This document shows, in pieces, positions 25,040 to 56,344 of a stretch of 64,000 nucleotides of DNA (within the stretch, counting starts at the first letter, position 1; each line of letters starts with the position of its first letter). The position numbers and the translations under genes are program-made. A model generated the notes under the pieces. The model did no database searches and was not told the origin of the DNA. It saw nothing but the letters and a program-made list of their open reading frames with translations. The stretch comes from Anaerolineae bacterium (lineage in GTDB: Bacteria > Chloroflexota > Anaerolineae > Anaerolineales > UBA6663): assembly GCA_037442085.1 (NCBI GenBank), contig JBBIQY010000002.1, positions 6,583 through 70,582 on the forward strand. The letters are read 5' to 3'.

Positions 25040-26052
25040 TAGAGAATGTGCCACGCGCGCAGTAGCAGATCGCCGATGAGGCCGAGCAGGAACAACAGGC
25101 CGAAGCGCCGGTTGTGCTGGAAGGCGAAGGCGACGAACCAGAGCGGCCAGATGCCTTTGGGGAAGAAGTCCGGCGGCGCTGCCGGCTTGGGCTGGCGATA
25201 GACGCGGCTGACGAGCAGGAAGGTGGACGTCGCCAGGAAGACGATCAGCAGCGCCGGCGTGAAGAAGCCGGTCAACACCTGATACACCACGACGACGTAC
25301 TGCAGCGCCATCATCCCGAGCACGGTATAGCGCGAGGTCTGTTCGCCCAGCAGCACCGGCAGCGTGCGGATGCCCTTCGATTTATCCACGGCATACTTGT
25401 CAATATGCTTGCCGAAGATCACGCCCGTGACGCCCAGGGCGTAGGGCAAGCCCGCCAGCACCACGTTCCAATCCCACCGACCGGTGACCATGAAGTAAGT
25501 GCCGCCGATCATCAACGGCCCCCAGACCACGATCACGGCGATCTCGCCCAGGCCGATGTACTTGAGCGGGAAGGTATAGAAGAGAACGAAGAACGCGCCC
25601 GCGCCAAGCAGGCTCCAGGCTAACACCGGCTCGGACGCGGTGAACATCAGGTACAAGCCAATGATGAGCGCTGCGCCGCCGGTGACGGCGACATAGGCCA
25701 GCACCTGGCGCAGAGTCATCAGGTTGTGCGCCAGTGGGTGCGGGCCGTACTGGACGCGGAAGTAGTTGTTCTTGTCCACACCCTTCCAGTAGTCGGTCAG
25801 GTCGTTGAGCAGGTTGTTGGTGGCGTGGGCCAGCATCAGGCCGAGCGTCACCAGCGTCCATTGCACGCCGTCGAAGAGGCCGGCCCGCAGAGCCAACAGC
25901 CCGCCGATGGCTGCCGAGATAAAGGTCATGATGAGCACCTGGGCGCGCGTGGCGATCAGCCACTTGGCGACGACGTCGAGGCCGTTCCATTCCTCGGGCT
26001 CCATGCGCGCCACTACGCCGCGCAACGCTTTGCTCCACATCGTTGGGTTCAT
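25039..26052 (-). CDS. menA: UbiA-family prenyltransferase, MenA-like (1,4-dihydroxy-2-naphthoate prenyltransferase)
   Basis: Polytopic protein with Asp-rich NNLLNDLTDYWKGVD and GKHIDKYAVD. The track N-terminal extension overlaps the kinase gene, so ATG 26052 is used. Confidence 0.75.
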   Translation of the reverse strand: MNPTMWSKALRGVVARMEPEEWNGLDVVAKWLIATRAQVLIMTFISAAIGGLLALRAGLFDGVQWTLVTLGLMLAHATNNLLNDLTDYWKGVDKNNYFRVQYGPHPLAHNLMTLRQVLAYVAVTGGAALIIGLYLMFTASEPVLAWSLLGAGAFFVLFYTFPLKYIGLGEIAVIVVWGPLMIGGTYFMVTGRWDWNVVLAGLPYALGVTGVIFGKHIDKYAVDKSKGIRTLPVLLGEQTSRYTVLGMMALQYVVVVYQVLTGFFTPALLIVFLATSTFLLVSRVYRQPKPAAPPDFFPKGIWPLWFVAFAFQHNRRFGLLFLLGLIGDLLLRAWHIL

Positions 26053-26089
26053 GGTGTTTTCTCCCGGTTGCGAACGCCCGAAGATTCTA

Positions 26090-33958: not shown

Positions 33959-33984
33959 AGAGACCTCTACGCCCAATAGATTTC

Positions 33985-34013
33985 TTGACCGAGCCAAGCG
34001 TATACGCTAGAAT
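33985..34013 (+). promoter_or_regulatory. Near-consensus sigma-70 promoter for tRNA-Gly
   Basis: TTGACC (33985-33990), 17 nt spacer, TAGAAT (34008-34013). The mature tRNA 5' end is 13 nt downstream. Confidence 0.7.
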
Positions 34014-34025: not shown

Positions 34026-34097
34026 GCGGGTGTAGTTCAGTGGTAGAACGCTTGCTTCCCAAGCAAGATATCGTGGGTTCGAATCCCATCACCCGCT
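34026..34097 (+). tRNA. tRNA-Gly (anticodon CCC)
   Basis: Manual cloverleaf: acceptor gcgggtg/cacccgc, D stem gttc/gaac, anticodon stem cttgc/gcaag with loop ttCCCaa, T arm gtggg-ttcgaat-cccat. 72 nt, CCA not encoded. Confidence 0.9.
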
Positions 34098-34140: not shown

Positions 34141-34174
34141 CGCCCTCGTAACCCCTCGAGGGCGATTACATTTT
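34141..34174 (+). terminator. Putative intrinsic terminator after the tRNA
   Basis: CGCCCTCG-taacccct-CGAGGGCG (8 bp GC stem) followed by attacatttt. Confidence 0.5.
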
Positions 34175-34331: not shown

Positions 34332-34718
34332 ATGCCGGAGACCCATATCTTGTACATTGAAGACAATGCCGACAACCGCACCCTGGTCAAGCGCGTGCTG
34401 GAAGCTGCCGGCTACCGGGTCAGCCTGGCTGCGGAAGCACAATCCGGGCTGGCCGAGGCGGTGCGCAGCCGGCCGCAGATCATCCTGCTGGACATCAACC
34501 TGCCGGAAGTGGATGGCTATACGTTGACCACACGCCTGCGCGCCACGGCCGGGCTGGAGAACACGTGCATTATTGCCCTGACCGCGAATGTCATGAAAGG
34601 CGACCGTGAGCGTACGCTAACCGCCGGGTGTAACGGTTACATTCAGAAGCCGATTGACGTGGATGCGCTGCCCGATCAGGTCGCGCGTTATCTGGCCCAG
34701 CACCGCAAAGCAACCTGA
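34332..34718 (+). CDS. Single-domain response regulator (CheY-like receiver)
   Basis: ILYIEDN...IILLDINLPEVDG...ALTANVMKGD...GYIQKPI. Confidence 0.85.
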   Translation: MPETHILYIEDNADNRTLVKRVLEAAGYRVSLAAEAQSGLAEAVRSRPQIILLDINLPEVDGYTLTTRLRATAGLENTCIIALTANVMKGDRERTLTAGCNGYIQKPIDVDALPDQVARYLAQHRKAT

Positions 34719-34739
34719 GGGCGCGCCAACCTCACCACA

Positions 34740-35180
34740 ATGAAACTCATGCCAACTCCGCCTCACACTCGCGAACCCGTCAACCCCAAAGACGCGACCG
34801 TGCTGATCGTCGAAGACAACGTCTCCAACTTTGTGCTGATGGCCCGCATGTTGGCGTATATGGGCGTGCCGCGCTGTGAATGGAAGACCTCGGGCTGGCA
34901 GGTGGTGGAATTCGCCGACACCCTGCCGCGCATTGACCTGATCATCATGGACATCCGGCTGCCCTACGAAGACGGCTACGCGGCACTCTCTAAAGTGCGC
35001 GCCACCCCCAAGCTCAAGGAGACGATCGTCGTGGCCGTGACCGCCGAAGCCACTCTGGAGCAGTTGAACCGGGCGCGCGCTGCCGGCTTCGACGGCTTCC
35101 TGGGCAAACCCCTTGACCCAGATCGCTTCCCCGACCAGATCCGGCGTTTGCTGCGCGGCGAGCCGGTCTGGGAACAGTGA
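34740..35180 (+). CDS. Single-domain response regulator (receiver), second copy
   Basis: VLIVEDN...LIIMDIRLPYEDG...AVTAEA...GFLGKPL. Confidence 0.8.
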   Translation: MKLMPTPPHTREPVNPKDATVLIVEDNVSNFVLMARMLAYMGVPRCEWKTSGWQVVEFADTLPRIDLIIMDIRLPYEDGYAALSKVRATPKLKETIVVAVTAEATLEQLNRARAAGFDGFLGKPLDPDRFPDQIRRLLRGEPVWEQ

Positions 35181-35198
35181 GCATGGGAGGAGGCGCGC

Positions 35199-37025
35199 AT
35201 GACCAGTCAGCCGCCCCTGTCCCCCCGGCCTACAGCCAGCGGCGGGTTGGCGCGCAGTCTGCTCTGGCTGGTGCTGCCGCTCACTCTCGCGCCGCTTCTG
35301 GTCGCAGCCTATGGCTTCTATCGTCAGGCGGAAGCCGAGCTTGACCGCCGCCTCACCACACAACTCGATACGCTGGTCAACGCCAAACTAGCGCAAATTC
35401 GACAATGGACGGACCAGCAGGTCACGGTCCTTGACGTGCTGGCGCGCGACATCGCGCGGGAGACAATCACCCCGGAAACAGCCGCCGCTCTGCGCCCGCA
35501 ACTGGCCGCGTTCCTCGATGCAAACCCGGCTTATAAGTGCCTCCTCATCGTTGGCGTCACCGATGGCGCCGTCTGGCTCAATGAGGGCGCTGCGCCAGCA
35601 GCGGCGATGTCCTTCTCCGAGAGCTTTCTCCAGCAAGTAAAGTATGAACCGCAGTTCCTGACGCCGCGCTTCTGGCCGGAGCTGGACGCGCAGGTCGTCA
35701 GCCTGGTCGCCACTACGCCCATCGCACCAGCCGAGCAGAGTGCGGTGGCGATCCTGGTCGGCGTGCTACGCCATGAGCCGCTGCTGCGAATCGTCGCGCC
35801 GGCGCCCGGCCTGGGAGCGACCGGCCAGGCCTACCTGGTCAGTGAAGACGGTTACCGCGTCGGCGTCCAGATCATGTCGCCGCGCGCCCGTCCGCGAAGC
35901 GAGACGATACGCCGCGTGCTCGATCAGGCCAGCAGCGGCGGAGGCTTCTACGCCAACCCGGAAGGGGCGACCGTCGTCGGGCGTTACGCCTGGCTGAACG
36001 AACAGCGGCTGGCGCTGTTCGTGGAGCAAGAGTGGGCCGAAGCTGCAGCGCCGCTCGAAAACACGCTGTGGATACTGGGGGCGGTGACCCTGAGCAGTAG
36101 TGTGCTGGTGGTTGTGGTGAGTACGTTCTTCACCCGGCGTCTGACCCGACCCATCCGCGCCTTGACTAACAGCGCCGCGCGCATCGCCGCCGGCGATCTG
36201 ACAGCTCAAGTGGAGATCGAACGCAGCGACGAACTGGGCCTGCTGGCGCAAGCCTTCAACCGCATGAGCGAAGACCTGCGGATTTCCTACCGGACGCTTC
36301 AAACCACCGCTGAGTGGCGCGCCCGACAATTGACGATCACAGCGGAGATGAGCCGCGTCGCCGCTGCCCATCGCAGCCTGGCCCAATTGCTGCCAGAAGT
36401 GACGGCCCTCATCCAGCATCATTTTGGTTACCATGGCGTGCTGGTTTTCCTGACCGATGAGACAGGTCAGTCGTTGCGGCTGCACACCGAACACTATGCG
36501 TCGGTGGCCAGCGGCCGTCCAGCAGGACCAAAGGCCCATCCCCTCACCATCGAGATCGAGTCTGGCTCATTGCCGGGCCACGTTGCGCGCAGCCGTTCGG
36601 CGCGCACAGCCGCTCAGGTGGAAGCCCCGCCCCTGCACCGGCTAGACCCGCGCCTGGCCGAATTCCAATCGGAGGCAGCCCTGCCCTTGACCGTCGGCGA
36701 GCGCCTCATCGGCGTCCTGGTCTGCCTCAGCCGCGAGCCCGACGCCTTCTCAGGCGCAGACTTCGACATCCTGCAAACGCTGACCGATCAGGCCGCCGTG
36801 GCGATCGAGAACTGCCAGCTCTTCGAGCGCCAGCAGAGCCTCTTACGCCTGGAGGAACTGGTACTCACGCTCTCGACGAAAGCGCACCGCTCCCTGAAAG
36901 CCGAGACCATCCTCGAAAGCACCGCTGTGGAGCTGGGCCGAGCGTTGGGCGCGCGCCGGGCCATCGTGCGCCTACAGGGCGGCAGCCCAGGTAACGGCCA
37001 GACGCTGGAGACGGACCCGAAATGA
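35199..37025 (+). CDS. Membrane sensor protein: TM - extracytoplasmic (Cache-like) domain - TM - HAMP - GAF, no output domain
   Basis: HAMP motif RPIRALTNSAARIAAGDLTAQVEIERSDELGLLAQAFNRM. GAF end FSGADFDILQTLTDQAAVAIENCQLF. GGAGGAGG SD. Confidence 0.8.
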   Translation: MTSQPPLSPRPTASGGLARSLLWLVLPLTLAPLLVAAYGFYRQAEAELDRRLTTQLDTLVNAKLAQIRQWTDQQVTVLDVLARDIARETITPETAAALRPQLAAFLDANPAYKCLLIVGVTDGAVWLNEGAAPAAAMSFSESFLQQVKYEPQFLTPRFWPELDAQVVSLVATTPIAPAEQSAVAILVGVLRHEPLLRIVAPAPGLGATGQAYLVSEDGYRVGVQIMSPRARPRSETIRRVLDQASSGGGFYANPEGATVVGRYAWLNEQRLALFVEQEWAEAAAPLENTLWILGAVTLSSSVLVVVVSTFFTRRLTRPIRALTNSAARIAAGDLTAQVEIERSDELGLLAQAFNRMSEDLRISYRTLQTTAEWRARQLTITAEMSRVAAAHRSLAQLLPEVTALIQHHFGYHGVLVFLTDETGQSLRLHTEHYASVASGRPAGPKAHPLTIEIESGSLPGHVARSRSARTAAQVEAPPLHRLDPRLAEFQSEAALPLTVGERLIGVLVCLSREPDAFSGADFDILQTLTDQAAVAIENCQLFERQQSLLRLEELVLTLSTKAHRSLKAETILESTAVELGRALGARRAIVRLQGGSPGNGQTLETDPK

Positions 37026-39901
37026 CACCGCCGTCCGAATCGCGCCCCCATGCGCAGCGCAATGTGCGCCGGATCGGGCGTCTGTTGCTGGTCATCGCCG
37101 CCCTGATTGCCGGAGTGGCCCTCGTCCTGTATCTGGGCGAGGGCGGGCCAGCCGCAGCGCTCCCCGTGCTAGCTGCAGCCGGCGTCGCGATCATGACGGC
37201 GCTGATCAGTCTGAGTCTCAACGCCGCCAGTCGAACCCGCAGCGCCGCCTGGTTGCTGGCCATCTTCGTGATGCTGGCAGCGCCGGGCGCAGTCGCTCTG
37301 TTTGCCAACATCGGCGTGCCCAGCAGCATCCTGCTCCTGATCGCCGTCGGCGCGATCGCCAGCCTGAGCCTGGCCGGGTCCGAGGCGCGCACCATGATCC
37401 TGGCCGGCGTGGCCGTCAGCGTGACGACCCTGAGCCTGGATCTGCTCCTCGAGTCGAATGCGCTCTGGCCACGCCTGACGCTGCCCGACTGGTTTCAGAA
37501 CGGCGCCCTGCCCGTCTTCACGACCGGCGTAATCGCGTTGTTTGGGGTTTTGCTCTGGCGCCAGTTTCCGCGCTACCGCCTGAGCAGCAAACTGTTGTTG
37601 GGCTTCCTCTTTGTGGCGCTGGCGCCGCTCATCCTCACGAGTTGGCGCACCGACCAGGCCCTGCGCGCCAGCCTGACCCGTACCGTCAACCAATCGCTGG
37701 TGGTCGCTGCCTCGCGCACCGCCGCCGACCTCGACAGTTTCCTCACCGCCAACCGTCTCGCCATCTCCGGGCAGGCGCGCCTGCCGCTGTTGAGCGAGTA
37801 CCTGCGCCTGCCCGCCTCCGAGCGTTCGGCCAGCCCCCTGACGCAGCAAACGCGTGACCTGCTCCTCTCCCTGCTGACCGCGCCCGGCCAAGGCGCCCTG
37901 GCCACGGGCCAGACGCGCAACACCTCAGCCTACTTCCTGTTCGATGCCAGCGGCGACCTGGTGTTGAGCACGACCTCCGGCGCGGCCCTTGAGCCGGCCC
38001 AGGCGGAGGCCATCTTCCGAACGCCGTTGGAGACCGGAGAGGCTTACCTCTCGCCCGTCTACTATCGCGGCTCGACCGGCGCTTTTTACCTGGCTGTGCC
38101 TGTTGCCGAACCGGGGGGTACGCCCCTCGGCGTGCTGGCGGCCGAGGTCAACTCGGCCTGGCTCCAGCGCCTCATCCAACTCAACCGGGAGCCGCTCGGG
38201 CCGGGCAGCGAATCGGTGGCAGCCCTGTTCAACGAGGACGGCCTGCGGCTGGCCGACAGCGCCGCCGCCGGCACCAATGCATTGCGGTTCGCCGCGCTGC
38301 CGGCAGCGCCGGACTTGAACAACTTACTGACCCTGGGACGCGCGCCGGCGCGCACGCCGGCCGAGCTGGACGCGCAATTACCGGCGCTGGCGGCGCGGCT
38401 GGCGGACGCCCGGCAGACCGACCAACCGACTTTCTTCGAAGGCCTCATCCACTATGCCGACGACCCTGCCGAGCCGGAGCCGCGCCACTTTGCCGTATTA
38501 CTACCGCTACGCAATGCGCCGTGGATCGTCCTGACATCGCAACCGGAACCGGTGGCCCTGGCTCCGGTGCGCGCTCAGACCCGTACAACGATCCTGCTGG
38601 CGCTGGTCGCCGCCCTGGCTGTGACAGGCCTGTCGGCGATCGCTTCGCGCAACCTGACCCAGCCCATCGTCAGCCTGACCCGGGCGGCAGAGCAGGTGCG
38701 CAGCGGCGACCTTTCCGCGCGCGCGACGCCCGCCGGCGACGATGAGATCACCCAACTCATCAAGACGTTCAACGCCATGACGAGCCAACTGCAAGACACC
38801 CTGAACCGGTCGGAGCAGTTGGTGGCGGAACGCACGGCGCAGCTCCAGGCCACCGCCGACATCAGCCGCGCCACCGCCGGCATCCGCAACCTGAACGACC
38901 TGCTTGAGCTGGCGCTGGAGATGATCCGGGGCCGGTTCGGGTTTTATCACGCTTCGGTCTTTTTACTGGACGACGCCGGCGAATATGCCGTGCTGCGCGA
39001 ATCCACCGGCGAAGTGGGCGCACAGCTAAAAGCGCAAGGGCACCGGCTGGCGATCGGCTCGCGCTCGCTGGTAGGCTGGGTGACGCAGAACCGGCGGCCG
39101 CGCATCGCCCGCGACGTGGCCGACGACCCGTTCCACTTCAAGAACCCGCTGCTGCCCGAGACACGCTCCGAATGCTGCCTGCCGTTGCTGGTCGGCGACC
39201 GCCTGCTGGGGGCGCTCGACGTGCAGAGCCGCGAGCGCGACGACTTCAACGAGAACGACCTGCAGGCGCTGCAGGTGCTGGCCGACCAGTTGAGCATCGC
39301 CATCGAAAACGCCTCCCTCTTCCAGCGCACGCAGGCCGCGCTCGCGGAAGCCCAATCGCTCTACCAGCAGACCCTCAACACCAGTTGGCGCAACACGGCC
39401 ATCGAGCAGAACCTGCTCCCGCGCACCCTGGTCTACGATCTGGAGCCGGGCGGCGCCGAGAGCGACAACCCGATTCAGGTGCCGCTACGCCTGCGCGGCC
39501 AGCTCATCGGCGTGATCGAACTGCATGGGCGGCCCGAGGAGCGGCCGCTCAATGCGCAGGAGCAGGCCGTGCTCGAAACCATCGCCGCGCAAATCGCCTC
39601 GGCGCTGGAGAGCGCGGCGCTCTTGCAGGAAAGCCAGGCCCGCAGCCGGCGCGACCAGCTCATCACCGCCATCACCGACGAGATGCGCTCGTCCCTGAAC
39701 CCGGCCTTCATCGTGCAAAGCGGCATCCGCCAGCTGGGCCGTGCGCTCGGCGCAACCGAGGTCACCCTGCGGCTGCAACCCAAGCCCATCGCCAAAGACT
39801 CGCCCGACATCACACTGCCCAGCGGCGATGGAGAAGCGGGTAGCGCTCCTTCGCAGCCAGCTCCGCTGGCGCCGCCAGCTTCGCTTGCGCATGGGTCATG
39901 A
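37022..39901 (+). CDS. Polytopic membrane sensor: multi-TM - extracytoplasmic domain - HAMP - 2 GAF, no output domain
   Basis: ATGA overlap with the upstream gene. HAMP motif QPIVSLTRAAEQVRSGDLSARA..DEITQLIKTFNAM. GAF ends FNENDLQALQVLADQLSIAIENASLF and LNAQEQAVLETIAAQIASALESAALL. Confidence 0.8.
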   Translation: MTPPSESRPHAQRNVRRIGRLLLVIAALIAGVALVLYLGEGGPAAALPVLAAAGVAIMTALISLSLNAASRTRSAAWLLAIFVMLAAPGAVALFANIGVPSSILLLIAVGAIASLSLAGSEARTMILAGVAVSVTTLSLDLLLESNALWPRLTLPDWFQNGALPVFTTGVIALFGVLLWRQFPRYRLSSKLLLGFLFVALAPLILTSWRTDQALRASLTRTVNQSLVVAASRTAADLDSFLTANRLAISGQARLPLLSEYLRLPASERSASPLTQQTRDLLLSLLTAPGQGALATGQTRNTSAYFLFDASGDLVLSTTSGAALEPAQAEAIFRTPLETGEAYLSPVYYRGSTGAFYLAVPVAEPGGTPLGVLAAEVNSAWLQRLIQLNREPLGPGSESVAALFNEDGLRLADSAAAGTNALRFAALPAAPDLNNLLTLGRAPARTPAELDAQLPALAARLADARQTDQPTFFEGLIHYADDPAEPEPRHFAVLLPLRNAPWIVLTSQPEPVALAPVRAQTRTTILLALVAALAVTGLSAIASRNLTQPIVSLTRAAEQVRSGDLSARATPAGDDEITQLIKTFNAMTSQLQDTLNRSEQLVAERTAQLQATADISRATAGIRNLNDLLELALEMIRGRFGFYHASVFLLDDAGEYAVLRESTGEVGAQLKAQGHRLAIGSRSLVGWVTQNRRPRIARDVADDPFHFKNPLLPETRSECCLPLLVGDRLLGALDVQSRERDDFNENDLQALQVLADQLSIAIENASLFQRTQAALAEAQSLYQQTLNTSWRNTAIEQNLLPRTLVYDLEPGGAESDNPIQVPLRLRGQLIGVIELHGRPEERPLNAQEQAVLETIAAQIASALESAALLQESQARSRRDQLITAITDEMRSSLNPAFIVQSGIRQLGRALGATEVTLRLQPKPIAKDSPDITLPSGDGEAGSAPSQPAPLAPPASLAHGS

Positions 39902-42900
39902 ACTTGAAGGAACGCGACAGCGGCATCTTCCCGCGTGAGCATTTGACGCCCGAGCTGCGCCTCGCCCTGCGCAACGCCCGCGCCGAGGTGCTCGATCAAT
40001 TGCTGCGCGGCGTGCGCTGGGTAGCGCTGCTGGCGCTGGCCACCTCGGCGCTGAGTGCGGCCTTCACCGGCATGTGGGCGCCGACCCTCATCTATGCCGT
40101 CATCTTCCTGGCCGTTCTAGCGTTATCACTGGCGCGCACCTGGCCGCTGACCAGGCGCGGCGGCCTCTTCCTCGGATTGGTGTACGTGCTGGGGGTGGTC
40201 AGCCTATTCAGCTCCGGCCTGGAAGGCTCCGGCCGGGTGATCCTGCTGGGCTTCGCCGTGTTAACCACAGTCCTGTTCGGCGCGCGGGCCGGGCTGAGCG
40301 CCTTGCTGGCTGTCCTGCTGACGTGGGCGCTCCTGGGCTTCGTGGTCACGACGGGCCTGTGGCAACCCCTGGACCCGGCCAGTTCTCTGGTCTGGCAGGA
40401 TTGGCTGGTTGCCGGGGCGACCCTGGCGCTGTTTATCGTGGCGCTCATCATCCCGCAACGCCAGTTCCTGGAGACACAGGCCTTTGCGCTGGCGACTTCC
40501 GAACAAAAACGCGAGCTGGAAAAAACGCGCGAGGCTCTGCTGCAGCGGACAGCCGAGCTCGAGGCGGCTACACAGGCGCTCAGCCTGACCAATGAGGAAT
40601 TGCTGGCGCAGTCGCGGGTGCTGGAGCGTCGCGCCTCACAGTTGGCCGTCAGCGCCGAGGTGGCGCGCGCCGCCGCCACCCTGCATGATTTACCCACGCT
40701 GCTCGATGGCGCTGTCCGCCTCATCAGCGAGAAGTTCGGGTTTTATCACGCTGGGATTTTCCTGCTGGACGAAGACGGGGAGTGGGCGGTGCTGCGAGCG
40801 GCCAGCAGCGCCGGCGGGCAGCGGATGCTCGCTCGCCGCCACCGCTTGCGCGCAGCGAAGGTCGCCGGTGGGCAGCAGGGCATCGTCGGTTTCGTCGCCG
40901 CCTCCGGTCAGCCGCGCATCGCCCTCAATGTCGGCGAGGACGCCGTGCACTTCCGCAACCCCGATCTGCCGGACACACAGTCCGAGATGGCGCTGCCGCT
41001 GCGCGGCAGCGCCGGTGTGATCGGCGCGCTCGACGTGCAATCCACGCAGCTCAACGCCTTCAGCGACGACGACATCGTCGCCCTGCAATCGCTGGCCGAC
41101 CAATTGGCGGTCGCCATCGAAAACGCGCGGCTGCTGGCCGAACAGGAACGCAACCTGGAGGCGCTGCGGCAGTTGCAAAGACAGGCGCGCGAACAGGGCG
41201 GCGGCATGCCGGTCTCGGCGCTGCCACAAGCGTATCGCTATGACGGCGTGGACACGGCGCCGCTGCCCATCGAGGACGCCGCCACCGAGCCGGGCGCGCT
41301 GGAGATCCCCATTCGCGCCGGCGACCTGACGCTGGGCACCATTGCCATCAAGCGGGAGCAGCAGGTCTGGTCCGACAACGAGCTCCAACTGATCGAAGCC
41401 ATCGCCGAGCGCATGGGGCTGGCGCTGGAAAACGCCCACCTGTACTTCGATGCCCGCACCAATGCCCAGCGCATGGCGGCACTGTCGGAAGCGGCGCTGG
41501 AGCTGACCGGCCCGCAATTCAGCCGCGCCGAGCTGCTGCAGCTCATTGCGCGCCGCGCCCGCGCCCTGCTGCGCGCCGATAGCGCCGACCTGTGGCTGCC
41601 CGTGCCGGATTCCGACGAAATCGAACTGGCCGTGACCCATCCCACCGTCTCCTATTCGCTACTGGGCCGCCGCCTGAAAATCGGCGAAGGGTTGGCAGGC
41701 AGGGCGCTGGCCACCGGCGGGCCGGTGACGTTGGACGATTACCAGACTCAGCCCGGCCAGATGAGCGCCCTGGCCGTGCCCATGATCTGGCAGACGGAGA
41801 CGCTGGGCGTGCTGGCCGTCAACCGGCTGCAGCCGGACTGGCGCTACTCCGCCGAGGATGAGACCGTAGCCCGGCTGTTCGCTGCCGCCGCCGCCTCGGC
41901 CCTCTCCAATGCCCGCCTGCTGGAGGAGACGCGTCGCCGCCTGGTCGAACTGCAAACCATCAACAGTATCAGCGCCATCCTCAGCTCGCAGGCTAACCTG
42001 GAGGTGATGCTGCGCCAGGTGGGCGACAAGATCATGGAGATCTTCGGCGTCCAGACCGGCTACATCGCCCTGTTCGACCCGGCCCGCCGGCAACTGGGGT
42101 TTCCATACAGCCTGGAAAAGGGCCAGCCGGTATCCACGCCGCCCATCCCGCTTGGGCACGGCCCAACGTCGCTCGTCTTTCAGACGCGCCAGCCGTTGCT
42201 GATCAACCAGGATGCCCCGCTCCGCCTGCAGGAATTGGGCGCCTACCTCGGGAGCGAGCCGGCGCTCTCGTACCTGAGCGTGCCCATCATCGTCGGCGAC
42301 GAAGTCACCGGCATCCTCAACGTGCAGAGCACGACTCAGGCCGGGTTGTTCTCCGAGAACGACATCCAGCTGCTGAGCACTATTGCCGCCAATATCGGCG
42401 TCGCCATCGAAAACGTGCGCTTGTTCAAACAAACGCAGAGCGCACTGGCCGAGACGGAGGCCCTCTACCGTGCCAGCGCCGAGCTGAACACGGCCCAGGG
42501 CTTCAATGAGGTGCTCGCCGTGCTACGCCGCCAGACGGTGCTGCGGCGTGCCCATACGCTGCAACTGCACTACTTCGAGCGCCCCTGGACGGCGCGCGAG
42601 GTGCCGGGCCGCAGCGAAATCATCGCGCACTGGAGCATCGTCCAGCCCGAGGCCCTCGACCAACTCTTCCCTGTCGCGGCCTGGATGGCGCGCAATCTGC
42701 GGCCGGATGAGGCGCTGCTCATCGAGAATCTGCAGCACGATCCGCGTCTGGATGAGATCAGCCGCAACACGTACCGGCTACGCTACAGCGCGCAGGCTGC
42801 GCTGTTCACGCCGTTGGTGGTCGGCGGCGAGTGGGTGGGCTACCTGGCCGGCTTCATCGGGGAGGCCACGACGTTCAGCGAGGCGGAACGGCTGCGGCTG

Positions 42901-45687
42901 GTGAACCTGGGCCAGCAGGCAGCGGCGTTGATCGAGAACCTGCGCAGCATCGCCGTCATCGAGCGCCGCGCCGAGCAGTTGGGCGCGCTCAACCGCCTGG
43001 CCGAGGCCGCCGTCTCCAATCTCGACCTGGACGTCATGCTGACCTCCGTCTGCCGCGAAATCGCTCAGGCATTCCAGGCGCACAGCGTCAACATCGCGCT
43101 GCTCAACGCCGAGCGCGATGCGCTGGTTGTGGCCGCGGATTACAGCGTGGCTGCTGATCACAGCATGGCCGCCGAGCAGGCGCAAGAGAACAGCACGGCC
43201 GGGGTCGTCATCCCAATCGCCAGTAATCCTTCCCTCCGGCGCGTGGTCGAAACCCATCGTTCGCTGGTCCTCACCGATGTGCAGACCCGTTCGTTGGGCG
43301 CGTTCAGCGCGCCGAGCGAGACGCGGCACGATCGGATGCACGAGCGCCAAGCCGAAAGCCTGCTGCTCACGCCGCTGGTTGCGCGCGGCGAGGTCATCGG
43401 CGTCATCGGCATTGATAGCGACCAGCCGCGGCGCACCTTCACCGACGCCGAAGTCTCGCTGGCCGAGACCATGGCGGGCCAGATTTCCAACGCGATCGAG
43501 AACAGCCGCCTGTACCAGCAGGCGCAGCGGCGAGCGCAGCAACTCATCACCGCCGCCGAGGTCAGCCGCGCCGCCACCACGCTGCTCGACGAGCGCGAAC
43601 TATTACAGCGCGCGGTCGAGCTGATCCATGAGCGCTTCAATCTGTACTACGTCGGCTTGTTCCTGCTGGACGAACACGGTCACTGGGCCGTGTTGCGCCA
43701 CGCCGTCGGCGGCGCTCCGGAAGGCGCGGCGTTGCTGCTGCGCCAGGGCCACCAACTGGAGGTCGGCGGACAATCCATGGTGGGCTGGGCCATCGCCCAC
43801 CGCGCTGCGCGAATCTCGTCGGACGTGGCCGAAGAGACGGTGCGCTACCCCAACCCGCTGACGCCGGACACGCGCTCGGAGATGGCGCTGCCGCTGATCG
43901 TTGGGCCAAGCGTGCTCGGCGCCATCAGCGTGCAATCCACCCAGCGTAACGCCTTCACCGAGGCCGACGTCGCCGTGCTACAAACGATGGCCGATCAGAT
44001 CGCGGCTTCCCTGCAAAATGCCCGCCTCTTCCGCCGCGTCAAGGCGCAAGAGCGTTCGGCCAGCGCCCTGGCCCGCATCGCACAATCCGTCTCCGGCAAA
44101 CTGGAAGAGCAGGAGGTGTGGGCCACCCTCGCCGCCGAGCTGTTGGACACCTTCCAGGCCGACGGCGTCGTCATCTATGGTTGGAACGCGGCGGACGAGA
44201 CGGTGCTGCCGCGGGTGGTGCTGTGCGAGCCGGAGGCCGCCGACGCGCTGCGCTGGCCGACGCCCGGCCAGCCCACGCCGGTGAGCGCGCATCCGGAACT
44301 GGCGCAGGCCATCACGGCGGAGACACGCCAGGTGCAGCGACTTGCCTCGAGCATGTTCGGCGAGCCGCGTGAGAGCGTCATCGTCCCGCTACACATCATG
44401 GGCCAGCTCGACAGCCTGGTGGCGCTGGTGCATTCCACCGGCTCTGCCGGCGCCGATCACCTGACGACGGACGACTTCAACCTGCTGGAGGCTGCCGTCC
44501 GCAGCGCCGAGGCCGCGGTGCAGATTGCGCGCCTGTACGCCCTGCAACGCGAGACCGCCGAGCGTCTGCAGGAAGTTGACCGGCTCAAGACCCAGTTCCT
44601 GGCCAACATGAGCCACGAGCTGCGCACACCGCTCAACTCCATCATCGGCTTCTCACGCGTCATCCTCAAGGGCATTGACGGCCCGCTCACCGAAATGCAG
44701 CAGCAGGACCTGACCTCGATCTACAACTCCGGCCAGCATCTGCTCGGCCTGATCAACGATATCCTCGACCTGTCGCGCATTGAGGCCGGCAAGATCGAGC
44801 TATCTTTCGACCGGGTATACCTGGGCGACATCTTCGAAGGCGTGCTGGCCACCACGCGCGGCCTGGTGCGCGACAAATCCATCGAACTGCACAAGAACGT
44901 GCCGGCAGATCTGCCGCCGGTGCGGGCCGACGCCACGCGCGTGCGGCAGGTGCTGCTCAACCTGTGCTCCAACGCTGCCAAGTTCACCGAACGTGGCGCG
45001 ATCACCCTCAGCGCCAGTGTCCTCCCCACCGAGTCGGTCGTGCAGATTAGCGTCACGGACACCGGGCAGGGCATCCCGGCCCATGAAATGGACAAGCTGT
45101 TCGAGCGCTTCTCGCAGTTGGATGGATCGCCAACGCGGCGCGCGGGCGGCACCGGCCTGGGCTTGAACATCAGCCGCCATCTGGTCGAACTGCACGGCGG
45201 GCGCATCTGGGCCGAGAGCGCCGGCGTGCCGGGCCGAGGCTCCACCTTCAGCTTCACGCTGCCGATCTGGGTTCCCGAGCCGGAACCTGAGCCGGGCGGC
45301 CCGCCGCTCATCCTCGTCATCGAGGATGACCGCGGCGTCTCCATGCTTTATCGCCGCTACCTGGAGCCGAACGGCTACCAGTTGCTGACCGTCTCGCGAA
45401 GCGAGGAAGCGGTGACGCGCGCCATAGCGGCGCGGCCGGCGGCCATCCTGCTCGATGTGCTTATGCCCAACAAGGACGGCTGGCAGGTGCTGACCGAGTT
45501 GAAGCGCAATCCGGCCACGAGCGCCATCCCTGTCATCGTCTGCACCGTCACCGACGAGCGGGAGCGCGCGCTGCAACTGGGGGCCGATGAACACCTGCTC
45601 AAGCCGATTCTCGAAAGCGACCTGACGCGCGCGCTCAATCGGCTGCCCGGCCTGAGCCGTAACAACGGCGCGACGCAGCACCGCTGA
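39898..45687 (+). CDS. Hybrid sensor histidine kinase: N-terminal TM block, ~8 GAF modules, HisKA, HATPase_c, C-terminal receiver
   Basis: ATGA overlap with the upstream gene. 8 GAF-terminal helices. FLANMSHELRTPL, GTGLGLNISR, and receiver ILVIEDD...ILLDVLMPNKDG. Confidence 0.85.
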   Translation: MNLKERDSGIFPREHLTPELRLALRNARAEVLDQLLRGVRWVALLALATSALSAAFTGMWAPTLIYAVIFLAVLALSLARTWPLTRRGGLFLGLVYVLGVVSLFSSGLEGSGRVILLGFAVLTTVLFGARAGLSALLAVLLTWALLGFVVTTGLWQPLDPASSLVWQDWLVAGATLALFIVALIIPQRQFLETQAFALATSEQKRELEKTREALLQRTAELEAATQALSLTNEELLAQSRVLERRASQLAVSAEVARAAATLHDLPTLLDGAVRLISEKFGFYHAGIFLLDEDGEWAVLRAASSAGGQRMLARRHRLRAAKVAGGQQGIVGFVAASGQPRIALNVGEDAVHFRNPDLPDTQSEMALPLRGSAGVIGALDVQSTQLNAFSDDDIVALQSLADQLAVAIENARLLAEQERNLEALRQLQRQAREQGGGMPVSALPQAYRYDGVDTAPLPIEDAATEPGALEIPIRAGDLTLGTIAIKREQQVWSDNELQLIEAIAERMGLALENAHLYFDARTNAQRMAALSEAALELTGPQFSRAELLQLIARRARALLRADSADLWLPVPDSDEIELAVTHPTVSYSLLGRRLKIGEGLAGRALATGGPVTLDDYQTQPGQMSALAVPMIWQTETLGVLAVNRLQPDWRYSAEDETVARLFAAAAASALSNARLLEETRRRLVELQTINSISAILSSQANLEVMLRQVGDKIMEIFGVQTGYIALFDPARRQLGFPYSLEKGQPVSTPPIPLGHGPTSLVFQTRQPLLINQDAPLRLQELGAYLGSEPALSYLSVPIIVGDEVTGILNVQSTTQAGLFSENDIQLLSTIAANIGVAIENVRLFKQTQSALAETEALYRASAELNTAQGFNEVLAVLRRQTVLRRAHTLQLHYFERPWTAREVPGRSEIIAHWSIVQPEALDQLFPVAAWMARNLRPDEALLIENLQHDPRLDEISRNTYRLRYSAQAALFTPLVVGGEWVGYLAGFIGEATTFSEAERLRLVNLGQQAAALIENLRSIAVIERRAEQLGALNRLAEAAVSNLDLDVMLTSVCREIAQAFQAHSVNIALLNAERDALVVAADYSVAADHSMAAEQAQENSTAGVVIPIASNPSLRRVVETHRSLVLTDVQTRSLGAFSAPSETRHDRMHERQAESLLLTPLVARGEVIGVIGIDSDQPRRTFTDAEVSLAETMAGQISNAIENSRLYQQAQRRAQQLITAAEVSRAATTLLDERELLQRAVELIHERFNLYYVGLFLLDEHGHWAVLRHAVGGAPEGAALLLRQGHQLEVGGQSMVGWAIAHRAARISSDVAEETVRYPNPLTPDTRSEMALPLIVGPSVLGAISVQSTQRNAFTEADVAVLQTMADQIAASLQNARLFRRVKAQERSASALARIAQSVSGKLEEQEVWATLAAELLDTFQADGVVIYGWNAADETVLPRVVLCEPEAADALRWPTPGQPTPVSAHPELAQAITAETRQVQRLASSMFGEPRESVIVPLHIMGQLDSLVALVHSTGSAGADHLTTDDFNLLEAAVRSAEAAVQIARLYALQRETAERLQEVDRLKTQFLANMSHELRTPLNSIIGFSRVILKGIDGPLTEMQQQDLTSIYNSGQHLLGLINDILDLSRIEAGKIELSFDRVYLGDIFEGVLATTRGLVRDKSIELHKNVPADLPPVRADATRVRQVLLNLCSNAAKFTERGAITLSASVLPTESVVQISVTDTGQGIPAHEMDKLFERFSQLDGSPTRRAGGTGLGLNISRHLVELHGGRIWAESAGVPGRGSTFSFTLPIWVPEPEPEPGGPPLILVIEDDRGVSMLYRRYLEPNGYQLLTVSRSEEAVTRAIAARPAAILLDVLMPNKDGWQVLTELKRNPATSAIPVIVCTVTDERERALQLGADEHLLKPILESDLTRALNRLPGLSRNNGATQHR

Positions 45688-45717
45688 GCGCTGCTGTCAT
45701 CAGCGGCCTCCGCCAGC

Positions 45718-47385
45718 ATGCCCACTACGGTCGAGATGGTTTGCATGGATTGTGGCGCACGTGCGCCGTTTGCGCCGATGCCGATGGCATGCGTGCGCTG
45801 CGGCAGCGACTGGTTCGAAGCCCGCTACGACTACGCCGCCGTCGCGGCCAGCTTTGCCGCGCCCACCTCCGGCGCCCACATGCGCCGTAACCCCGGCTTA
45901 TGGCGCTATCACGAGCTGCTGCCGCTGCGTGACCCGGCGCACGCCATCACGCTGGGCGAGGGCAACACGCCCCTCGTGCCGGCCACCAACCTGGGGCTGA
46001 TGCTCGGCTGCTCCAACCTCTTCATCAAGGATGAGCGGCAGAACCCGAGCGGCTCGTTCAAGGATCGGCAGGCCGCGCTGGCCGTCTCGGTGATGAAGGA
46101 AGCCGGCATCCGCGACGCGGTGGTGGCCTCCACCGGCAATGTTGCCATCTCCTACGCCGCCTACGGCGCGCGCGCCGGCATCAAAGTCTATGCCTTCCTC
46201 ACCTCGCTCGTGCCTCCCGAGAAGATGCGCGAGTGTGCGCTCTATGGCGCCCAGGTCATCAAAGTCACCGCCACCTATGATCAGTCGAAGGAGCTGGCGC
46301 AGGCCTTCGCCCGCCAGCGCGGCATGTATTACGACCGGGGCCTGCGCAGCATCGCCTCCGTCGAGAGCATGAAGACGCTGGCGTATGAGGTCGCCGAGCA
46401 GCTTGCATGGCAGGGGCCGGAGCCGGCCACGCCCTGGCGTGCCCCCGACTGGTATCTCCAATCCATCAGCGGCGGGCTGGGGCCGGTCGGCGCGATGAAG
46501 GGCTTCCGCGAATTGCAGGCCATGGGCCTGATTGACCGGATGCCGCGCCTGGCCTGCTTCCAGGTGGAGGGCTGCGCGCCGATGGTGACCGCCTACAAAC
46601 GCGGCAGCGCAACGCCGGATGTGGTCGCCTCGCCGCGCACCCGCATCGGCACGCTGGCGACGGGCAACCCGGGCCGCGCCTACAATTTTCTGCGTGACTA
46701 CCTGCTCCAGCACGGCGGCGTTCTGGAGTCCGTCAGCGACGACGAGACCTTCCGCGCCATGCACGTGATGGCAAAGATCGAGGGCTTCAGCATGGAGCCG
46801 GGCGCAGCGGCGGCCTTTGCCGGTCTGTTCAAGCTGGTGCAGCGCGGCCTCATCCAGCCGGACGAAACGGTGGTGGTGAACTGCACCGGCCACACCTTCC
46901 CGGTGGAGAGCGAAGTGTTGGGCGACGGCTGGGCGCAGGAGTTAGGCGAAGCACCGGCGACCACACCGGAGCCGGAGGGCGTGCTGGCCGCTTTGCAACG
47001 GTTGGACGCGCGCGTACGCTCGATTGCCATCATTGATGATACGCCGGACGCGGTGCGGCTGCTGCGCCGCATCCTACAGGCCCACGGCGATTACGCTATC
47101 CACGAGGCCGATAACGGGCGCGCCGGCCTGGCCCTGATCCGCGAGCGCCGGCCCGACCTCGTCATCCTGGACTTGATGATGCCCGAGGTGGACGGCTTCG
47201 CCGTGTTGGACGCCCTGCGAGCCGACGAGGCCACGCGCGATATCCCCGTCATCGTCGTCACCGCCAAAACCCTGACCCCGGAGGAGCGTGAGCGACTAGA
47301 CGGCCAGGCCAGCTCACTGTTTCAGAAAGGCGAGTTCATGGACGACGCGCTATTCGATGATGTGCGCAAGGCATTGCCGGAGTGA
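45718..47385 (+). CDS. Threonine-synthase-like fold-type II PLP enzyme fused to a C-terminal receiver domain
   Basis: N-terminal Zn ribbon CMDCG...CVRCG, GEGNTPLV, PLP-lysine motif NPSGSFKDRQA. C-terminal IAIIDDT...VILDLMMPEVDG...VVTAKT. Confidence 0.8.
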   Translation: MPTTVEMVCMDCGARAPFAPMPMACVRCGSDWFEARYDYAAVAASFAAPTSGAHMRRNPGLWRYHELLPLRDPAHAITLGEGNTPLVPATNLGLMLGCSNLFIKDERQNPSGSFKDRQAALAVSVMKEAGIRDAVVASTGNVAISYAAYGARAGIKVYAFLTSLVPPEKMRECALYGAQVIKVTATYDQSKELAQAFARQRGMYYDRGLRSIASVESMKTLAYEVAEQLAWQGPEPATPWRAPDWYLQSISGGLGPVGAMKGFRELQAMGLIDRMPRLACFQVEGCAPMVTAYKRGSATPDVVASPRTRIGTLATGNPGRAYNFLRDYLLQHGGVLESVSDDETFRAMHVMAKIEGFSMEPGAAAAFAGLFKLVQRGLIQPDETVVVNCTGHTFPVESEVLGDGWAQELGEAPATTPEPEGVLAALQRLDARVRSIAIIDDTPDAVRLLRRILQAHGDYAIHEADNGRAGLALIRERRPDLVILDLMMPEVDGFAVLDALRADEATRDIPVIVVTAKTLTPEERERLDGQASSLFQKGEFMDDALFDDVRKALPE

Positions 47386-47393
47386 AGTGATCG

Positions 47394-48410
47394 GTGGCAG
47401 CGCGCTGGAACTCAACCCAGGTCACCGGCGTGGCGGCGGCGTTGCTCTCGGCGCTGGCCTCGGGCTTCGTGCCCATCTTCGGCAAACAGGCCTATGAGGC
47501 GGGGCTGGAGCCGTTTACGGTGGTGATGCTGCGGACGGTGGGCGCGGCCGGCCTGCTCTGGTTCTTCTACCTGGTCTTCGCACGCAAGAGCATCTTCATC
47601 TACCCCTTCGCCTTCTGGGCCTGCGTAATCGCAGGCGCGGTCAACGGCCTGGGGTCGCTGCTGTTCTATACCAGCCTGAAGGATTTGAATGCCTCCCTCA
47701 GCCAGCTGCTCTTCACCCTCTACCCGCTCTTCCTCACGTTATTCTCGTGGCTCGACGGCTATCGCCTGTCGCGGCTGACGCTGGTGCGGCTCGGGCTGGC
47801 GCTGCTGGCCGTCTTTCTGCTCAAGTGGTCGGACCCTGCCGGCGCGAACTGGAGCGCAGCGCTGTTGATGATCGCCTCAGGCGCGCTGTATGCGTTGCAC
47901 ATCGCCCTCAACCAGCACACACTTTACGACGTCCCCTCGCCAACGGTGACGCTGTACACACTGAGCGGCATGGCCGGCACGGTCTTCATCGCCTACCTCA
48001 TCGGCGGGAGGCCGGCCCTGCCGGCCAGCGCAACGGCCTGGCAGCCGGTGCTGTTGCTCACGCTCGTCACGGTCACTGCGCGGTTGACGCTGTTTGTCGG
48101 CGTCAAGCACCTGGGCGGGATGCAGACGATCCTGCTCAACCTGAGCGAAGCTCTCGTCACCATCGTGGCGGCCAGCCTGCTGTTGAACGAGATGCTTACG
48201 CCGTTGCAGTGGTTGGGCGCGGGCCTGTTGGCCGTCTCGCTGCTGCTGGTGACGCGTGAGCAAGCGCTGGGCGCGATCCCGCAACCCAAGCCCTGGTTGC
48301 TGATCTTCACCGCATGGTTTGAAGCGGTGCGGCCTCAGTTGCCGCATCCGCGCCGCTCTCCTGCCCTCCGGAAACCCATTGCCCCGCCGCCAGCCGCCGA
48401 TGACGAGTAA
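47394..48410 (+). CDS. EamA/DMT-family transporter
   Basis: ~10 hydrophobic helices in two repeated halves, typical of EamA. GTG start 8 nt after the upstream stop. Confidence 0.7.
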   Translation: MAARWNSTQVTGVAAALLSALASGFVPIFGKQAYEAGLEPFTVVMLRTVGAAGLLWFFYLVFARKSIFIYPFAFWACVIAGAVNGLGSLLFYTSLKDLNASLSQLLFTLYPLFLTLFSWLDGYRLSRLTLVRLGLALLAVFLLKWSDPAGANWSAALLMIASGALYALHIALNQHTLYDVPSPTVTLYTLSGMAGTVFIAYLIGGRPALPASATAWQPVLLLTLVTVTARLTLFVGVKHLGGMQTILLNLSEALVTIVAASLLLNEMLTPLQWLGAGLLAVSLLLVTREQALGAIPQPKPWLLIFTAWFEAVRPQLPHPRRSPALRKPIAPPPAADDE

Positions 48411-48526: not shown

Positions 48527-48586
48527 CGCCGCGGTCAGCCGCTCTCCTTTCACTTGGCCAACGCACCCAGCGGCACAGGAAACCGT

Positions 48587-50020
48587 ATGCGGTTCACGAA
48601 GATCGTTTGCACCATCGGGCCGGCGTGTAATACCGAGGACAAAATCGCCCAGCTCATCGAAGCGGGCATGAACGTCGCCCGGCTTAATTTTTCTCACGGG
48701 ACACACGCCGAGCACGCGGCCACCATCGGTAAACTCCGCCGCGTCGCCAATCGCCTCAACCGGCCCCTGGCGATCCTGCAAGATTTACAAGGCCCGAAGA
48801 TCCGCACCGGTTGGCTCCAGGACCACAAACCGGTGGAGTTGAAAGACGGCGCGGAGTTCATCATCACCACCCGCAACGTCCCCGGCGACGCACGCCAGGT
48901 CTCCACCACTTATGACGGGCTGCCCGGCGATGTGAAGGCCGGCGACCGCATCCTGCTGGACGACGGGATGATGAAACTCAAGGTCGAACGCATAGCCGGA
49001 GGCACGGATGTACACACTCGCGTCATCCATGGCGGCCTGCTCAAGGAGCATAAGGGCATTAATTTGCCGGGTGTGCTGGTCAACGCTCCCTCGCTCACCG
49101 AGAAGGACCGCGAAGACCTGGCCTTTGGCCTGGAGCAGCAGGTGGATTATGTGGCGCTCAGCTTCGTGCGTCGCGCCGAGGATGTGGCCCTCATCAAGCG
49201 CGCACTGGTGGAGCTGAATCCCAAAGCCGCTAAGACCCCCATCATCGCCAAGCTGGAAAAGCCCTCGGCGCTGGACAACCTCGAGTCCATCGTGGACATC
49301 GCCGACGGCGTGATGGTGGCCCGCGGCGACCTGGGCGTGGAGTTGTCGCCGCAGCAGGTTCCCACCGCCCAGAAGCGCATCATCGAAGCCGCCAACCGCC
49401 ACCGCAAAATCGTCATCACCGCCACGCAAATGCTCGAGTCCATGATCCACAACCCGCTGCCCACGCGGGCCGAGGTCTCCGACGTGGCTAACGCCATCTT
49501 CGACGGCACCGACGCCGTGATGCTCTCCGGCGAGACGGCGACCGGCCAGTATCCCATCGAGGCCGTGAAAATGATGGCCGCGATTGCCGAGGAAGCCGAG
49601 TCCAACGGCGCCAAGTACAGCCGCTGGCAGGTGCCGAACGAAGTGACGACCGAGGATGCCATTGCGCTGGCGCGCGCCGCCCGCGAGCTGGCCCACGACC
49701 GCGCCGTGCAGGCCATCGCCGTGTTCTCGCTCACCGGCCGCAACGCCCGCCTCCTCTCCAAGGCCCGCCCGGACGTGCCCATCCTTGGCTTCACGCCCGA
49801 CCCCAAGACTTACGCCCGCATGAGCCTGCTGTGGGGCGTGATGCCCTACCTGGTGCCCCACGCCGACAGTGTGGAGACGATGCTGGCGCACGTCGAGGCC
49901 GCTATGCTGCTCAACTCGCCGGTGCGCCCCGGCCAGCAAGTCATTCTAATGGCCGGCATCCCGCCCACCAAGCTCGCCCCGGCCAACTTCATCTTCCTGC
50001 ACACCGTGGGCCGCAATTAG
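48587..50020 (+). CDS. pyk: Pyruvate kinase
   Basis: MRFTKIVCTIGPA, NVARLNFSHG, MVARGDLGVE, and a C-terminal regulatory domain. Confidence 0.95.
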   Translation: MRFTKIVCTIGPACNTEDKIAQLIEAGMNVARLNFSHGTHAEHAATIGKLRRVANRLNRPLAILQDLQGPKIRTGWLQDHKPVELKDGAEFIITTRNVPGDARQVSTTYDGLPGDVKAGDRILLDDGMMKLKVERIAGGTDVHTRVIHGGLLKEHKGINLPGVLVNAPSLTEKDREDLAFGLEQQVDYVALSFVRRAEDVALIKRALVELNPKAAKTPIIAKLEKPSALDNLESIVDIADGVMVARGDLGVELSPQQVPTAQKRIIEAANRHRKIVITATQMLESMIHNPLPTRAEVSDVANAIFDGTDAVMLSGETATGQYPIEAVKMMAAIAEEAESNGAKYSRWQVPNEVTTEDAIALARAARELAHDRAVQAIAVFSLTGRNARLLSKARPDVPILGFTPDPKTYARMSLLWGVMPYLVPHADSVETMLAHVEAAMLLNSPVRPGQQVILMAGIPPTKLAPANFIFLHTVGRN

Positions 50021-50025
50021 CTAGC

Positions 50026-56305: not shown

Positions 56306-56344
56306 GCACAAGATTATACCTTTCGATCGTTGTCGTTGATTGCT

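Follow-up and report, generated by a model that had tools for sequence, protein, structure and literature searches.

The window analysed here is a stretch of 64,000 nucleotides (nt) from an Anaerolineae bacterium (assembly GCA_037442085.1, contig JBBIQY010000002.1, positions 6,583-70,582; all coordinates below are window positions). A region of ~65% G+C in this window carries a compact set of genes for two stand-alone receivers (REC1 and REC2), two membrane proteins with HAMP and GAF domains and no transmitter (HG1 and HG2), a hybrid histidine kinase, an enzyme dependent on pyridoxal phosphate (PLP) that resembles threonine synthase (ThrC) and is fused to a receiver, and a transporter of the EamA family. 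On balance, we are inclined to read these genes as a two-component cassette with a metabolic, and not a transcriptional, output, in which the ThrC-like enzyme-receiver fusion is most likely the cognate response regulator of the kinase. The cassette is widespread in one bacterial class, the Anaerolineae. Its genes are arranged as follows (lengths in amino acids, aa):

34332-34718, plus strand, stand-alone receiver REC1 (128 aa from ATG; the longest open reading frame, ORF, starts from TTG at 34239)
34740-35180, plus strand, stand-alone receiver REC2 (146 aa)
35199-37025, plus strand, transmitter-less sensor HG1 (608 aa)
37022-39901, plus strand, transmitter-less sensor HG2 (959 aa)
39898-45687, plus strand, hybrid histidine kinase (1929 aa)
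45718-47385, plus strand, ThrC-like PLP enzyme-receiver fusion (555 aa)
47394-48410, plus strand, EamA/DMT-family transporter (338 aa; Pfam EamA, E 3e-25)

From REC1 to the fusion, the successive junctions measure 21, 18, -4, -4 and 30 base pairs (bp), and both -4 junctions (HG1/HG2 and HG2/hybrid kinase) read ATGA. An earlier note on this DNA had described six tightly packed genes with two ATGA overlaps, and the ORF listing and the junction sequences agree with it on genes, coordinates and overlaps. That note ended the unit at 47385, which does not hold, as a co-conserved EamA gene, absent from its account, starts 8 bp past the fusion gene. A consensus scan returned 10 terminator-like sites inside the unit against 9.7 in shuffled sequence. 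Since the promoter and terminator counts are those of chance, the scan adds no positive evidence, and only the short gaps speak for transcription units.

All the parts of a two-component system are encoded here. The hybrid kinase and a divergent kinase described below both contain HisKA and HATPase_c domains, and REC1, REC2 and the receiver of the enzyme each hold a full set of phospho-acceptor residues. The domain architectures given in the earlier note, which had itself proposed domain annotation as a check, were borne out by Pfam. Likewise, its statement that HTH, GGDEF and EAL domains are missing agrees with the Pfam scan, in which none of the six operon proteins matched these or any other output family at E <= 0.01, and the unit, together with its neighbouring small ORFs, yielded neither a DNA-binding nor a c-di-GMP domain.

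Conservation of the cassette was examined in a locus scan with one genome per species, which yielded at least 592 loci. The counts that follow refer to the best 80 of them (enzyme identity 54-88%), 79 titled Chloroflexota, mostly Anaerolineae, and one (L079) titled Lewinellaceae; the profiles used to annotate these loci derive from domains of the window. A receiver is encoded in all 77 ThrC-like genes, and a histidine kinase gene lies directly upstream on the same strand in each of the 68 evaluable loci (median gap 21 bp), 65 of these kinases having GAFs and 60 being hybrid. Further upstream, at least one transmitter-less GAF protein is encoded in 47 of 49 loci, with 98 such proteins in total. 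EamA is the next same-strand gene in 46 of 67 loci and stands within two genes in 58 (median gap 24 bp). Co-conservation was the test to which the earlier note had exposed its own operon, and the figures for kinase, GAF partners and receiver come out strongly in its favour.

Relatives with an enzyme 60-88% identical keep the same gene order. In four of them (L001, L003, L004 and L005, with enzymes 88%, 75%, 68% and 67% identical), transmitter-less HAMP-GAF proteins are followed by a MASE11 multi-GAF kinase, the fusion, EamA and pyruvate kinase. Three loci centred on HG1 orthologs (L009, L010 and L011) show, in this order, a divergent kinase with 11-14 GAFs, tRNA-Gly(CCC), two receivers, HG1, HG2 and the kinase. 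The pairing of enzyme and kinase is maintained even when the sensor changes, as in L006 and L007, where a single 2306-aa CHASE4-HAMP-PAS-GAF kinase precedes the fusion.

Strict adjacency of kinase and enzyme, intact phospho-acceptor and catalytic residues, and the absence of any other output make the enzyme-receiver the likely output of the system. The earlier claim that the operon has no output thus stands for DNA-binding and c-di-GMP domains, which are indeed absent, and fails for output in a wider sense, because the PLP enzyme-receiver and EamA, with their 68/68 kinase pairing and 58/67 association, respectively, are likely to provide it. Enzymatic response regulators are known, among them the CheB methylesterase, the PleD and WspR diguanylate cyclases, and RpfG. 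Like these proteins, the fusion joins an intact receiver to a catalytic domain, with the gene of its presumed kinase adjacent, a layout found throughout the family (77 of 77 fused, 68 of 68 with the kinase directly upstream). Unlike them, its catalytic part is predicted to be a PLP enzyme of amino-acid metabolism, and its receiver is C-terminal.

In the fusion protein, Pfam recognizes a PALP domain (E 2e-65) followed by a C-terminal Response_reg domain (E 8e-21). The full layout consists of a zinc ribbon with four cysteines, a fold-type II PLP domain with Lys115, a flexible linker of ~28 residues, and the receiver, with D441, D485, T515 and K537. Site conservation was assessed over 86 distinct sequences of the family (54-88% identity). 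The Schiff-base residue Lys115, placed in the motif SFKDR and aligned with Lys61 of the Thermus thermophilus enzyme, is invariant, and the STGN motif, the GHT motif, the four cysteines of the zinc ribbon and the glycines of the PLP-phosphate loop are invariant or nearly so. In the receiver, no sequence departs from D441 or D485; K537 is found in 85 sequences, with an alignment gap in the remaining one; and position 515 holds Thr in 78 and Ser in 7. K537 is followed by an invariant glycine (K-G) where proline is usual. An AlphaFold2 model of the fusion has a mean predicted local distance difference test (pLDDT) score of 76, with a confident PLP domain, while the last helix-strand-helix of the receiver remains below 50 in the monomer.

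The exact sequence of the 555-aa enzyme has no database record, and its context was taken from relatives. More than 120 close clusters share the same two domains, and those named by taxon are Anaerolineales metagenome bins. In a search of 1.8 billion representatives, the fusion clade comes down to a few clusters spanning 552-715 aa, of which those of 708-715 aa have two receivers. Next come stand-alone zinc-ribbon proteins (42-49% identity) and then a large family of ~410 aa (33-38%). One protein, P0106 (L008, 6255-8789), reaches 844 aa; its ThrC-like domain is followed by three receivers in tandem, and the gene directly upstream is not a kinase.

The closest solved proteins are the threonine synthases of Aquifex, Thermus, Mycobacterium and Bacillus, both by sequence (E 3e-46 to 1e-38) and by fold (target-normalized TM-score, TMt, 0.74-0.79; 29-35% identity). 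The fusion shares with them (2ZSJ, 1UIM/1V7C, 2D1F and 6CGQ) the fold-type II PLP domain, the lysine of SFKDR and the STGN motif, and JGI labels members of the family threonine synthase. Some EamA-family members export threonine or homoserine, as is the case of RhtA. These likenesses would fit a housekeeping threonine synthase tuned by its receiver, with EamA acting as an overflow exporter of the threonine/homoserine type. We nevertheless regard this explanation as unlikely, because the fusion scores below the cut-offs of the NCBIfam models for threonine synthase (263.4 against 303 for NF006050 and 146.7 against 167.1 for TIGR00260; NF004170 gives 186.8 against 421), NCBI names members of the family only "pyridoxal-phosphate dependent enzyme", and motifs common to 2ZSJ, 1UIM and 2D1F, which come from three phyla, have been replaced. 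In the fusion family, STGNT becomes STGNV, NSVNPxR[IL]EGQKT becomes D[RM]G.R....E[SA]MKT, and GNAGN becomes GG[LM]GP, the replacements being equally conserved within the family. The replaced residues are probably those lining the phosphate site for O-phosphohomoserine (1V7C complex), a point on which the literature searched offered no residue-level account. The fusion also differs from threonine synthase in its N-terminal four-cysteine zinc ribbon and its C-terminal receiver, and it stands in a signalling operon beside a transporter and not with hom/thrB, neither of which was found next to it in the loci examined.

Scores below the ThrC cut-offs and the replacement of shared motifs mean that the reaction cannot be assigned from likeness to threonine synthase. 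The fusion is a distinct ThrC-like clade by its sequence features, and the database label "threonine synthase" is probably wrong for it. Cysteate synthase/CapA (TIGR03844, 9K3C) offers a precedent for ThrC homologues that catalyze other beta- or gamma-replacement reactions. The structure 9K3C is among the structural matches to the fusion (TMt 0.71), and membership in TIGR03844 itself was tried and rejected, with 106 bits against a cut-off of 325.

The same protein could be viewed from the opposite side, with the ThrC-like domain serving as an input (a sensor that binds PLP and a ligand, or a pseudo-enzyme) that controls its own receiver, while this receiver would drain phosphate or modulate the kinase. 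The receiver takes the C-terminal place known from hybrid kinases, not the N-terminal one of typical regulators; it hangs on a flexible linker; and several receivers compete for the kinase. On the other hand, the lysine, the glycines of the PLP-phosphate loop and GHT, invariant over the 86 sequences, are what would be expected of an active enzyme, and the co-conserved transporter suits a metabolic product better than a sink, so that an input role appears quite improbable.

The hybrid kinase itself comprises, according to Pfam, MASE11, GAFs, HisKA (E 1e-21), HATPase_c (E 9e-29) and a Response_reg domain at residues 1805-1913, which covers positions 1-110 of the 111 in the profile. Its H-box reads MSHELRTPL, and a hydrophobicity scan places five or six transmembrane helices in the MASE11 part. 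REC1 and REC2 are single Response_reg domains (E 1e-24 and E 7e-19), and the acid pocket read from their sequences is complete in both (E10 D11, D53, T83 and K105 in REC1; E25 D26, D71, T101 and K123 in REC2).

These complete pockets, together with the position of REC1 and REC2 at the head of the operon and the fact that receivers of this single-domain kind serve as outputs in chemotaxis-like systems, raise the possibility that the true outputs are REC1 and REC2, acting in a CheY-like manner by protein-protein contact, with the enzyme fusion as an accessory. Against this, only 7 of the 49 evaluable loci have stand-alone receivers upstream, a trait confined to this lineage, whereas the enzyme fusion and the kinase are constant features. 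The receivers were also grouped by best-match analysis. The receiver of the enzyme groups with other enzyme receivers, and that of the kinase with the first receiver of kinase-REC-REC proteins in other lineages. Beyond close relatives, REC1 and REC2 find their best matches in the N-terminal receivers of small REC-kinase proteins, whose genes stand after the enzyme gene in other lineages. This affinity to the receiver halves of REC-kinase proteins suggests a branch of the network and not its end point, and REC1 and REC2 are very unlikely to be the true outputs.

The small REC-kinase gene, of ~420-450 aa, is found right after the fusion in L020, L021, L030, L036, L041 and others. In L028, L029, L032, L033 and others, a divergent minus-strand signalling cluster follows EamA; it encodes a receiver protein of ~250 aa, which may have an output domain, along with a REC-kinase and a kinase with three GAFs.

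The term phosphorelay, used in the earlier note, applies in part. There is a hybrid kinase with a C-terminal receiver, and no Hpt domain was detected in the 33 window ORFs scanned (all cassette genes, flanking genes and nine small unassigned ORFs among them); the scan did not extend to some fifteen further ORFs, most of them before 16 kb or within the final 1.1 kb. Because no Hpt was seen among the scanned ORFs, the system is described here as a kinase with several receivers and not as an established His-Asp-His-Asp relay.

Several points weigh against a metabolic output gated by the kinase. Hpt proteins are the usual route of signalling by hybrid kinases, and the genome may encode one at another site. 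The link between kinase and enzyme receiver is a prediction. In the AlphaFold2 model, the linker (residues 393-420) is disordered (pLDDT < 50) and enzyme and receiver make no fixed contact, so that no allosteric route is visible in the model, and the order of the two domains is the opposite of that in most response regulators. No canonical thrC was found in the fetched flanks, which says little about whole genomes and leaves room for a housekeeping role. Finally, EamA is absent or non-adjacent in 9 of 67 loci.

The second conserved component of the cassette, the transmitter-less proteins, was characterized by Pfam, hydrophobicity and AlphaFold2. HG1 shows a transmembrane segment (residues 21-39), a periplasmic domain of the dCache fold, a second transmembrane segment (289-307), HAMP, one full GAF and a tail. 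HG2 has six N-terminal transmembrane segments, a dCache-like domain, another transmembrane segment, HAMP, a GAF (625-766), a mini-GAF (779-867) and a tail. Its residues 1-205 (37022-37640), where the six predicted segments precede the dCache-like domain, form a membrane module with no Pfam match. The Pfam family dCache_1 scores below its cut-off of 45 bits in both proteins (21 and 39 bits), and the second GAF of HG2 is covered only at positions 84-136 of the 136 in the profile. Orthologs of HG1 fall into 15 clusters of ~600-630 aa, none with a transmitter. The AlphaFold2 model of HG1 (pLDDT 77.7) contains the dCache periplasmic domain, HAMP and GAF, and its periplasmic part, a double-Cache fold, best matches the ligand-binding domains of PctA and PctB (TMt 0.66-0.72). 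Amino-acid sensors of the dCache_1 type have a binding motif of Tyr/Arg/Trp/Asp; as judged by eye in the alignment, its candidate residues are only partly kept among HG1 orthologs, Arg157 in 13 of 15 and Trp159 in 7 of 15.

Both proteins carry the same tail:

36834-36974, plus strand, tail of HG1, the "GAF stub" (aa 546-592; match to the tail profile)
39635-39775, plus strand, tail of HG2, same motif (aa 872-918; tail profile score 58.1)

In the alignment of the 15 HG1 orthologs, residues 544-592 contain 18 invariant columns and are among the best conserved parts of the protein, while past residue 592 the sequence is variable and of low complexity. The tail of HG2 is kept in the orthologs of L001, L003 and L004. 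The consensus of the tail profile, 47 residues long, is QRRAERERLISEITSKIRASLDPETILQTAARELGRALGASEVVIQL. No Pfam match to this tail was obtained; it resembles the first two helices and the first strand of a GAF domain, and it has been named "stub" because it looks like the beginning of a GAF. In the AlphaFold2 model of HG1, it forms a helical hairpin that extends the last helix of the GAF (pLDDT ~65-77).

The distribution of the tail was measured on the fetched loci, where ~140 strong matches were found, nearly all <=40 residues from a C-terminus. It ends 95 of the 98 complete transmitter-less GAF partners upstream of the kinase and none of 75 kinases. A mini-GAF (the last third of the GAF profile) stands directly before it in 104 of 138 tail-bearing proteins, and a full GAF in 31, HG1 included. 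A search of a large database with mini-GAF plus tail, limited by its word index, gave two fragments. Two interpretations of the tail were discarded. It does not appear to be a DHp or Hpt element with a phospho-acceptor histidine, as His563, although constant among HG1 orthologs, gives way to Met in HG2, and the consensus has no His there; and a "split-GAF daisy chain", with one tail per mini-GAF of the kinase, agrees with the window, where both number 2, but fails across loci.

The transmitter-less GAF proteins are obligate companions of the kinase, translationally coupled to it in the window. That they are co-sensors contacting the kinase, as the earlier note had suggested, is plausible, and the class-specific tail fits this idea without proving it. 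Control of a kinase by contact, without a usable transmitter, is exerted by RetS on GacS and by YycH/YycI on WalK, and HG1 and HG2 would act on the kinase in a like manner. Unlike RetS and YycH/YycI, the partners in the cassette are GAF proteins with a 47-residue stub of their own, absent from the kinases. In L005 (GCA_020850595.1), two proteins take the place of the single kinase, one of 1580 aa (MASE11-GAF), with a tail-like motif 71 residues before its end, and one of 1442 aa (GAF-kinase-REC-REC), the gene for a ParA/MinD-like ATPase (4899-5681) lying between the two parts.

With these components, the following mechanism can be postulated. Three membrane proteins (HG1, HG2 and the MASE11 multi-GAF hybrid kinase) would gather signals, and their GAF arrays would probably integrate cytoplasmic small-molecule cues as well. 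HG1 and HG2, which hold no catalytic domain, would most likely act by protein contacts with the kinase, the "GAF stub" being a candidate contact or dimerisation element. The hybrid kinase would then phosphorylate the receiver of the enzyme encoded directly downstream, and this phosphorylation would switch the activity or the oligomeric state of the enzyme, while the EamA permease would export an amino-acid-like product or import a substrate. The kinase's own receiver, REC1 and REC2 would act on the phosphoryl flow as competitors, drains or branches, and REC1 and REC2 might be served by the divergent 14-GAF kinase.

A bolder version of this metabolic-output scheme draws on quorum-sensing loci, namely CqsA/CqsS of Vibrio and LqsA/LqsS/LqsR of Legionella, in which a PLP-dependent autoinducer synthase is encoded beside a sensor kinase. 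As in these loci, the cassette places the gene of a PLP enzyme beside that of a hybrid kinase, in a cluster without a DNA-binding regulator, a resemblance that by analogy suggests signal production. Both CqsA and LqsA, however, belong to fold-type I (AONS-like), have no receiver fusion and are presumably unrelated in sequence to the enzyme of the cassette, and CqsS and LqsS are not known to have GAF arrays. The cassette might then constitute a closed chemical signalling loop of a type without a described precedent, in which a receiver-gated synthase makes a signal, EamA exports it, the dCache domains detect it, and the stub couples the co-sensors to the multi-GAF kinase. We give this loop a small chance. 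In it, the product of the ThrC-like synthase would be a non-proteinogenic, amino-acid-like signal; the stub would be a new docking module plugging transmitter-less sensors into a kinase; and filamentous Anaerolineae would have an autoinduction circuit with a phospho-controlled synthase.

Upstream of the operon, the following features are encoded:

26090-33997, minus strand, divergent 14-GAF histidine kinase (2635 aa; Pfam)
34026-34097, plus strand, tRNA-Gly(CCC), between the divergent kinase and the operon (ARAGORN)

The divergent kinase contains 14 GAFs, HisKA (E 1.5e-18) and HATPase_c (E 3e-27), without a receiver, and, with no strong hydrophobic segments in the hydrophobicity scan, it looks soluble. 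GAFs were counted with a profile built from the window's own domains, which gives 8 in the hybrid kinase, one of them only a C-terminal third and one weak (E 0.0055), where Pfam recognizes 5-6. HG2 has one full GAF and one C-terminal third, and HG1 a single GAF. The total of 25 (14 + 8 + 2 + 1) agrees with the approximately 25 modules counted in the earlier note. A kinase with 11-14 GAFs occupies the same place in L009, L010 and L011, where tRNA-Gly(CCC) also keeps its position. This tRNA gene, which did not figure in the earlier note either, is flanked by a promoter-like site (33985-34013) and by a terminator-like hairpin with a T-run (34141-34164). Directly downstream of the 14-GAF kinase, the minus strand carries genes for a UbiE-type methyltransferase and a UbiA prenyltransferase (24329-26208); in the relatives, a methyltransferase gene comes after the divergent kinase in L009 and L011, and UbiA in L010.

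On the other side of the cassette, the neighbour is:

48554-50020, plus strand, pyruvate kinase (Pfam)

The gap between EamA and pyruvate kinase is 143 bp long and contains TTATAAT, and pyruvate kinase lies downstream in L001, L003, L004 and L005 but in only 7 of the 80 genome loci. It is probably a lineage-specific neighbour with its own promoter, outside the cassette. The ORF of an MFS transporter (49831-51255, plus strand), when started at its first GTG, shares 190 nt with the end of pyruvate kinase, and its true start is probably further downstream. Elsewhere in the window, a respiratory-type cluster (16784-22716, plus strand) encodes a 4Fe-4S/NrfD fusion, a molybdopterin oxidoreductase (983 aa) and a chaperone resembling the nitrate reductase delta subunit, and is followed by a calcineurin-like phosphoesterase (22769-24001). 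A second PLP enzyme, of the Cys/Met metabolism family (E 2e-149; 56340-57560, plus strand), is encoded 9 kb downstream, with no established link to the cassette, and an IS4/IS5-family transposase (DUF4096 plus DDE_Tnp_1) occupies 61962-62741 on the plus strand.

Two-component systems with enzymatic outputs and multi-GAF kinases are already known. In the full-text literature searched, no published description was found of a PLP amino-acid enzyme as a receiver-linked partner, nor of the coupling to EamA or of a stub marking transmitter-less partners. Anaerolineae abound in sludge, in sediments and in hot-spring mats; few have been cultured, and their physiology is almost unknown. The probable mislabelling of the ThrC-like clade matters for the metabolic reconstruction of these genomes, and the stub provides a concrete, mutable element for asking how transmitter-less "orphan" sensors inform kinases. 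A cassette of this kind in hundreds of Anaerolineae species would add a PLP amino-acid enzyme to the few outputs known for enzymatic response regulators, and would suggest that a small molecule is made or transported under the post-translational control of a signal.

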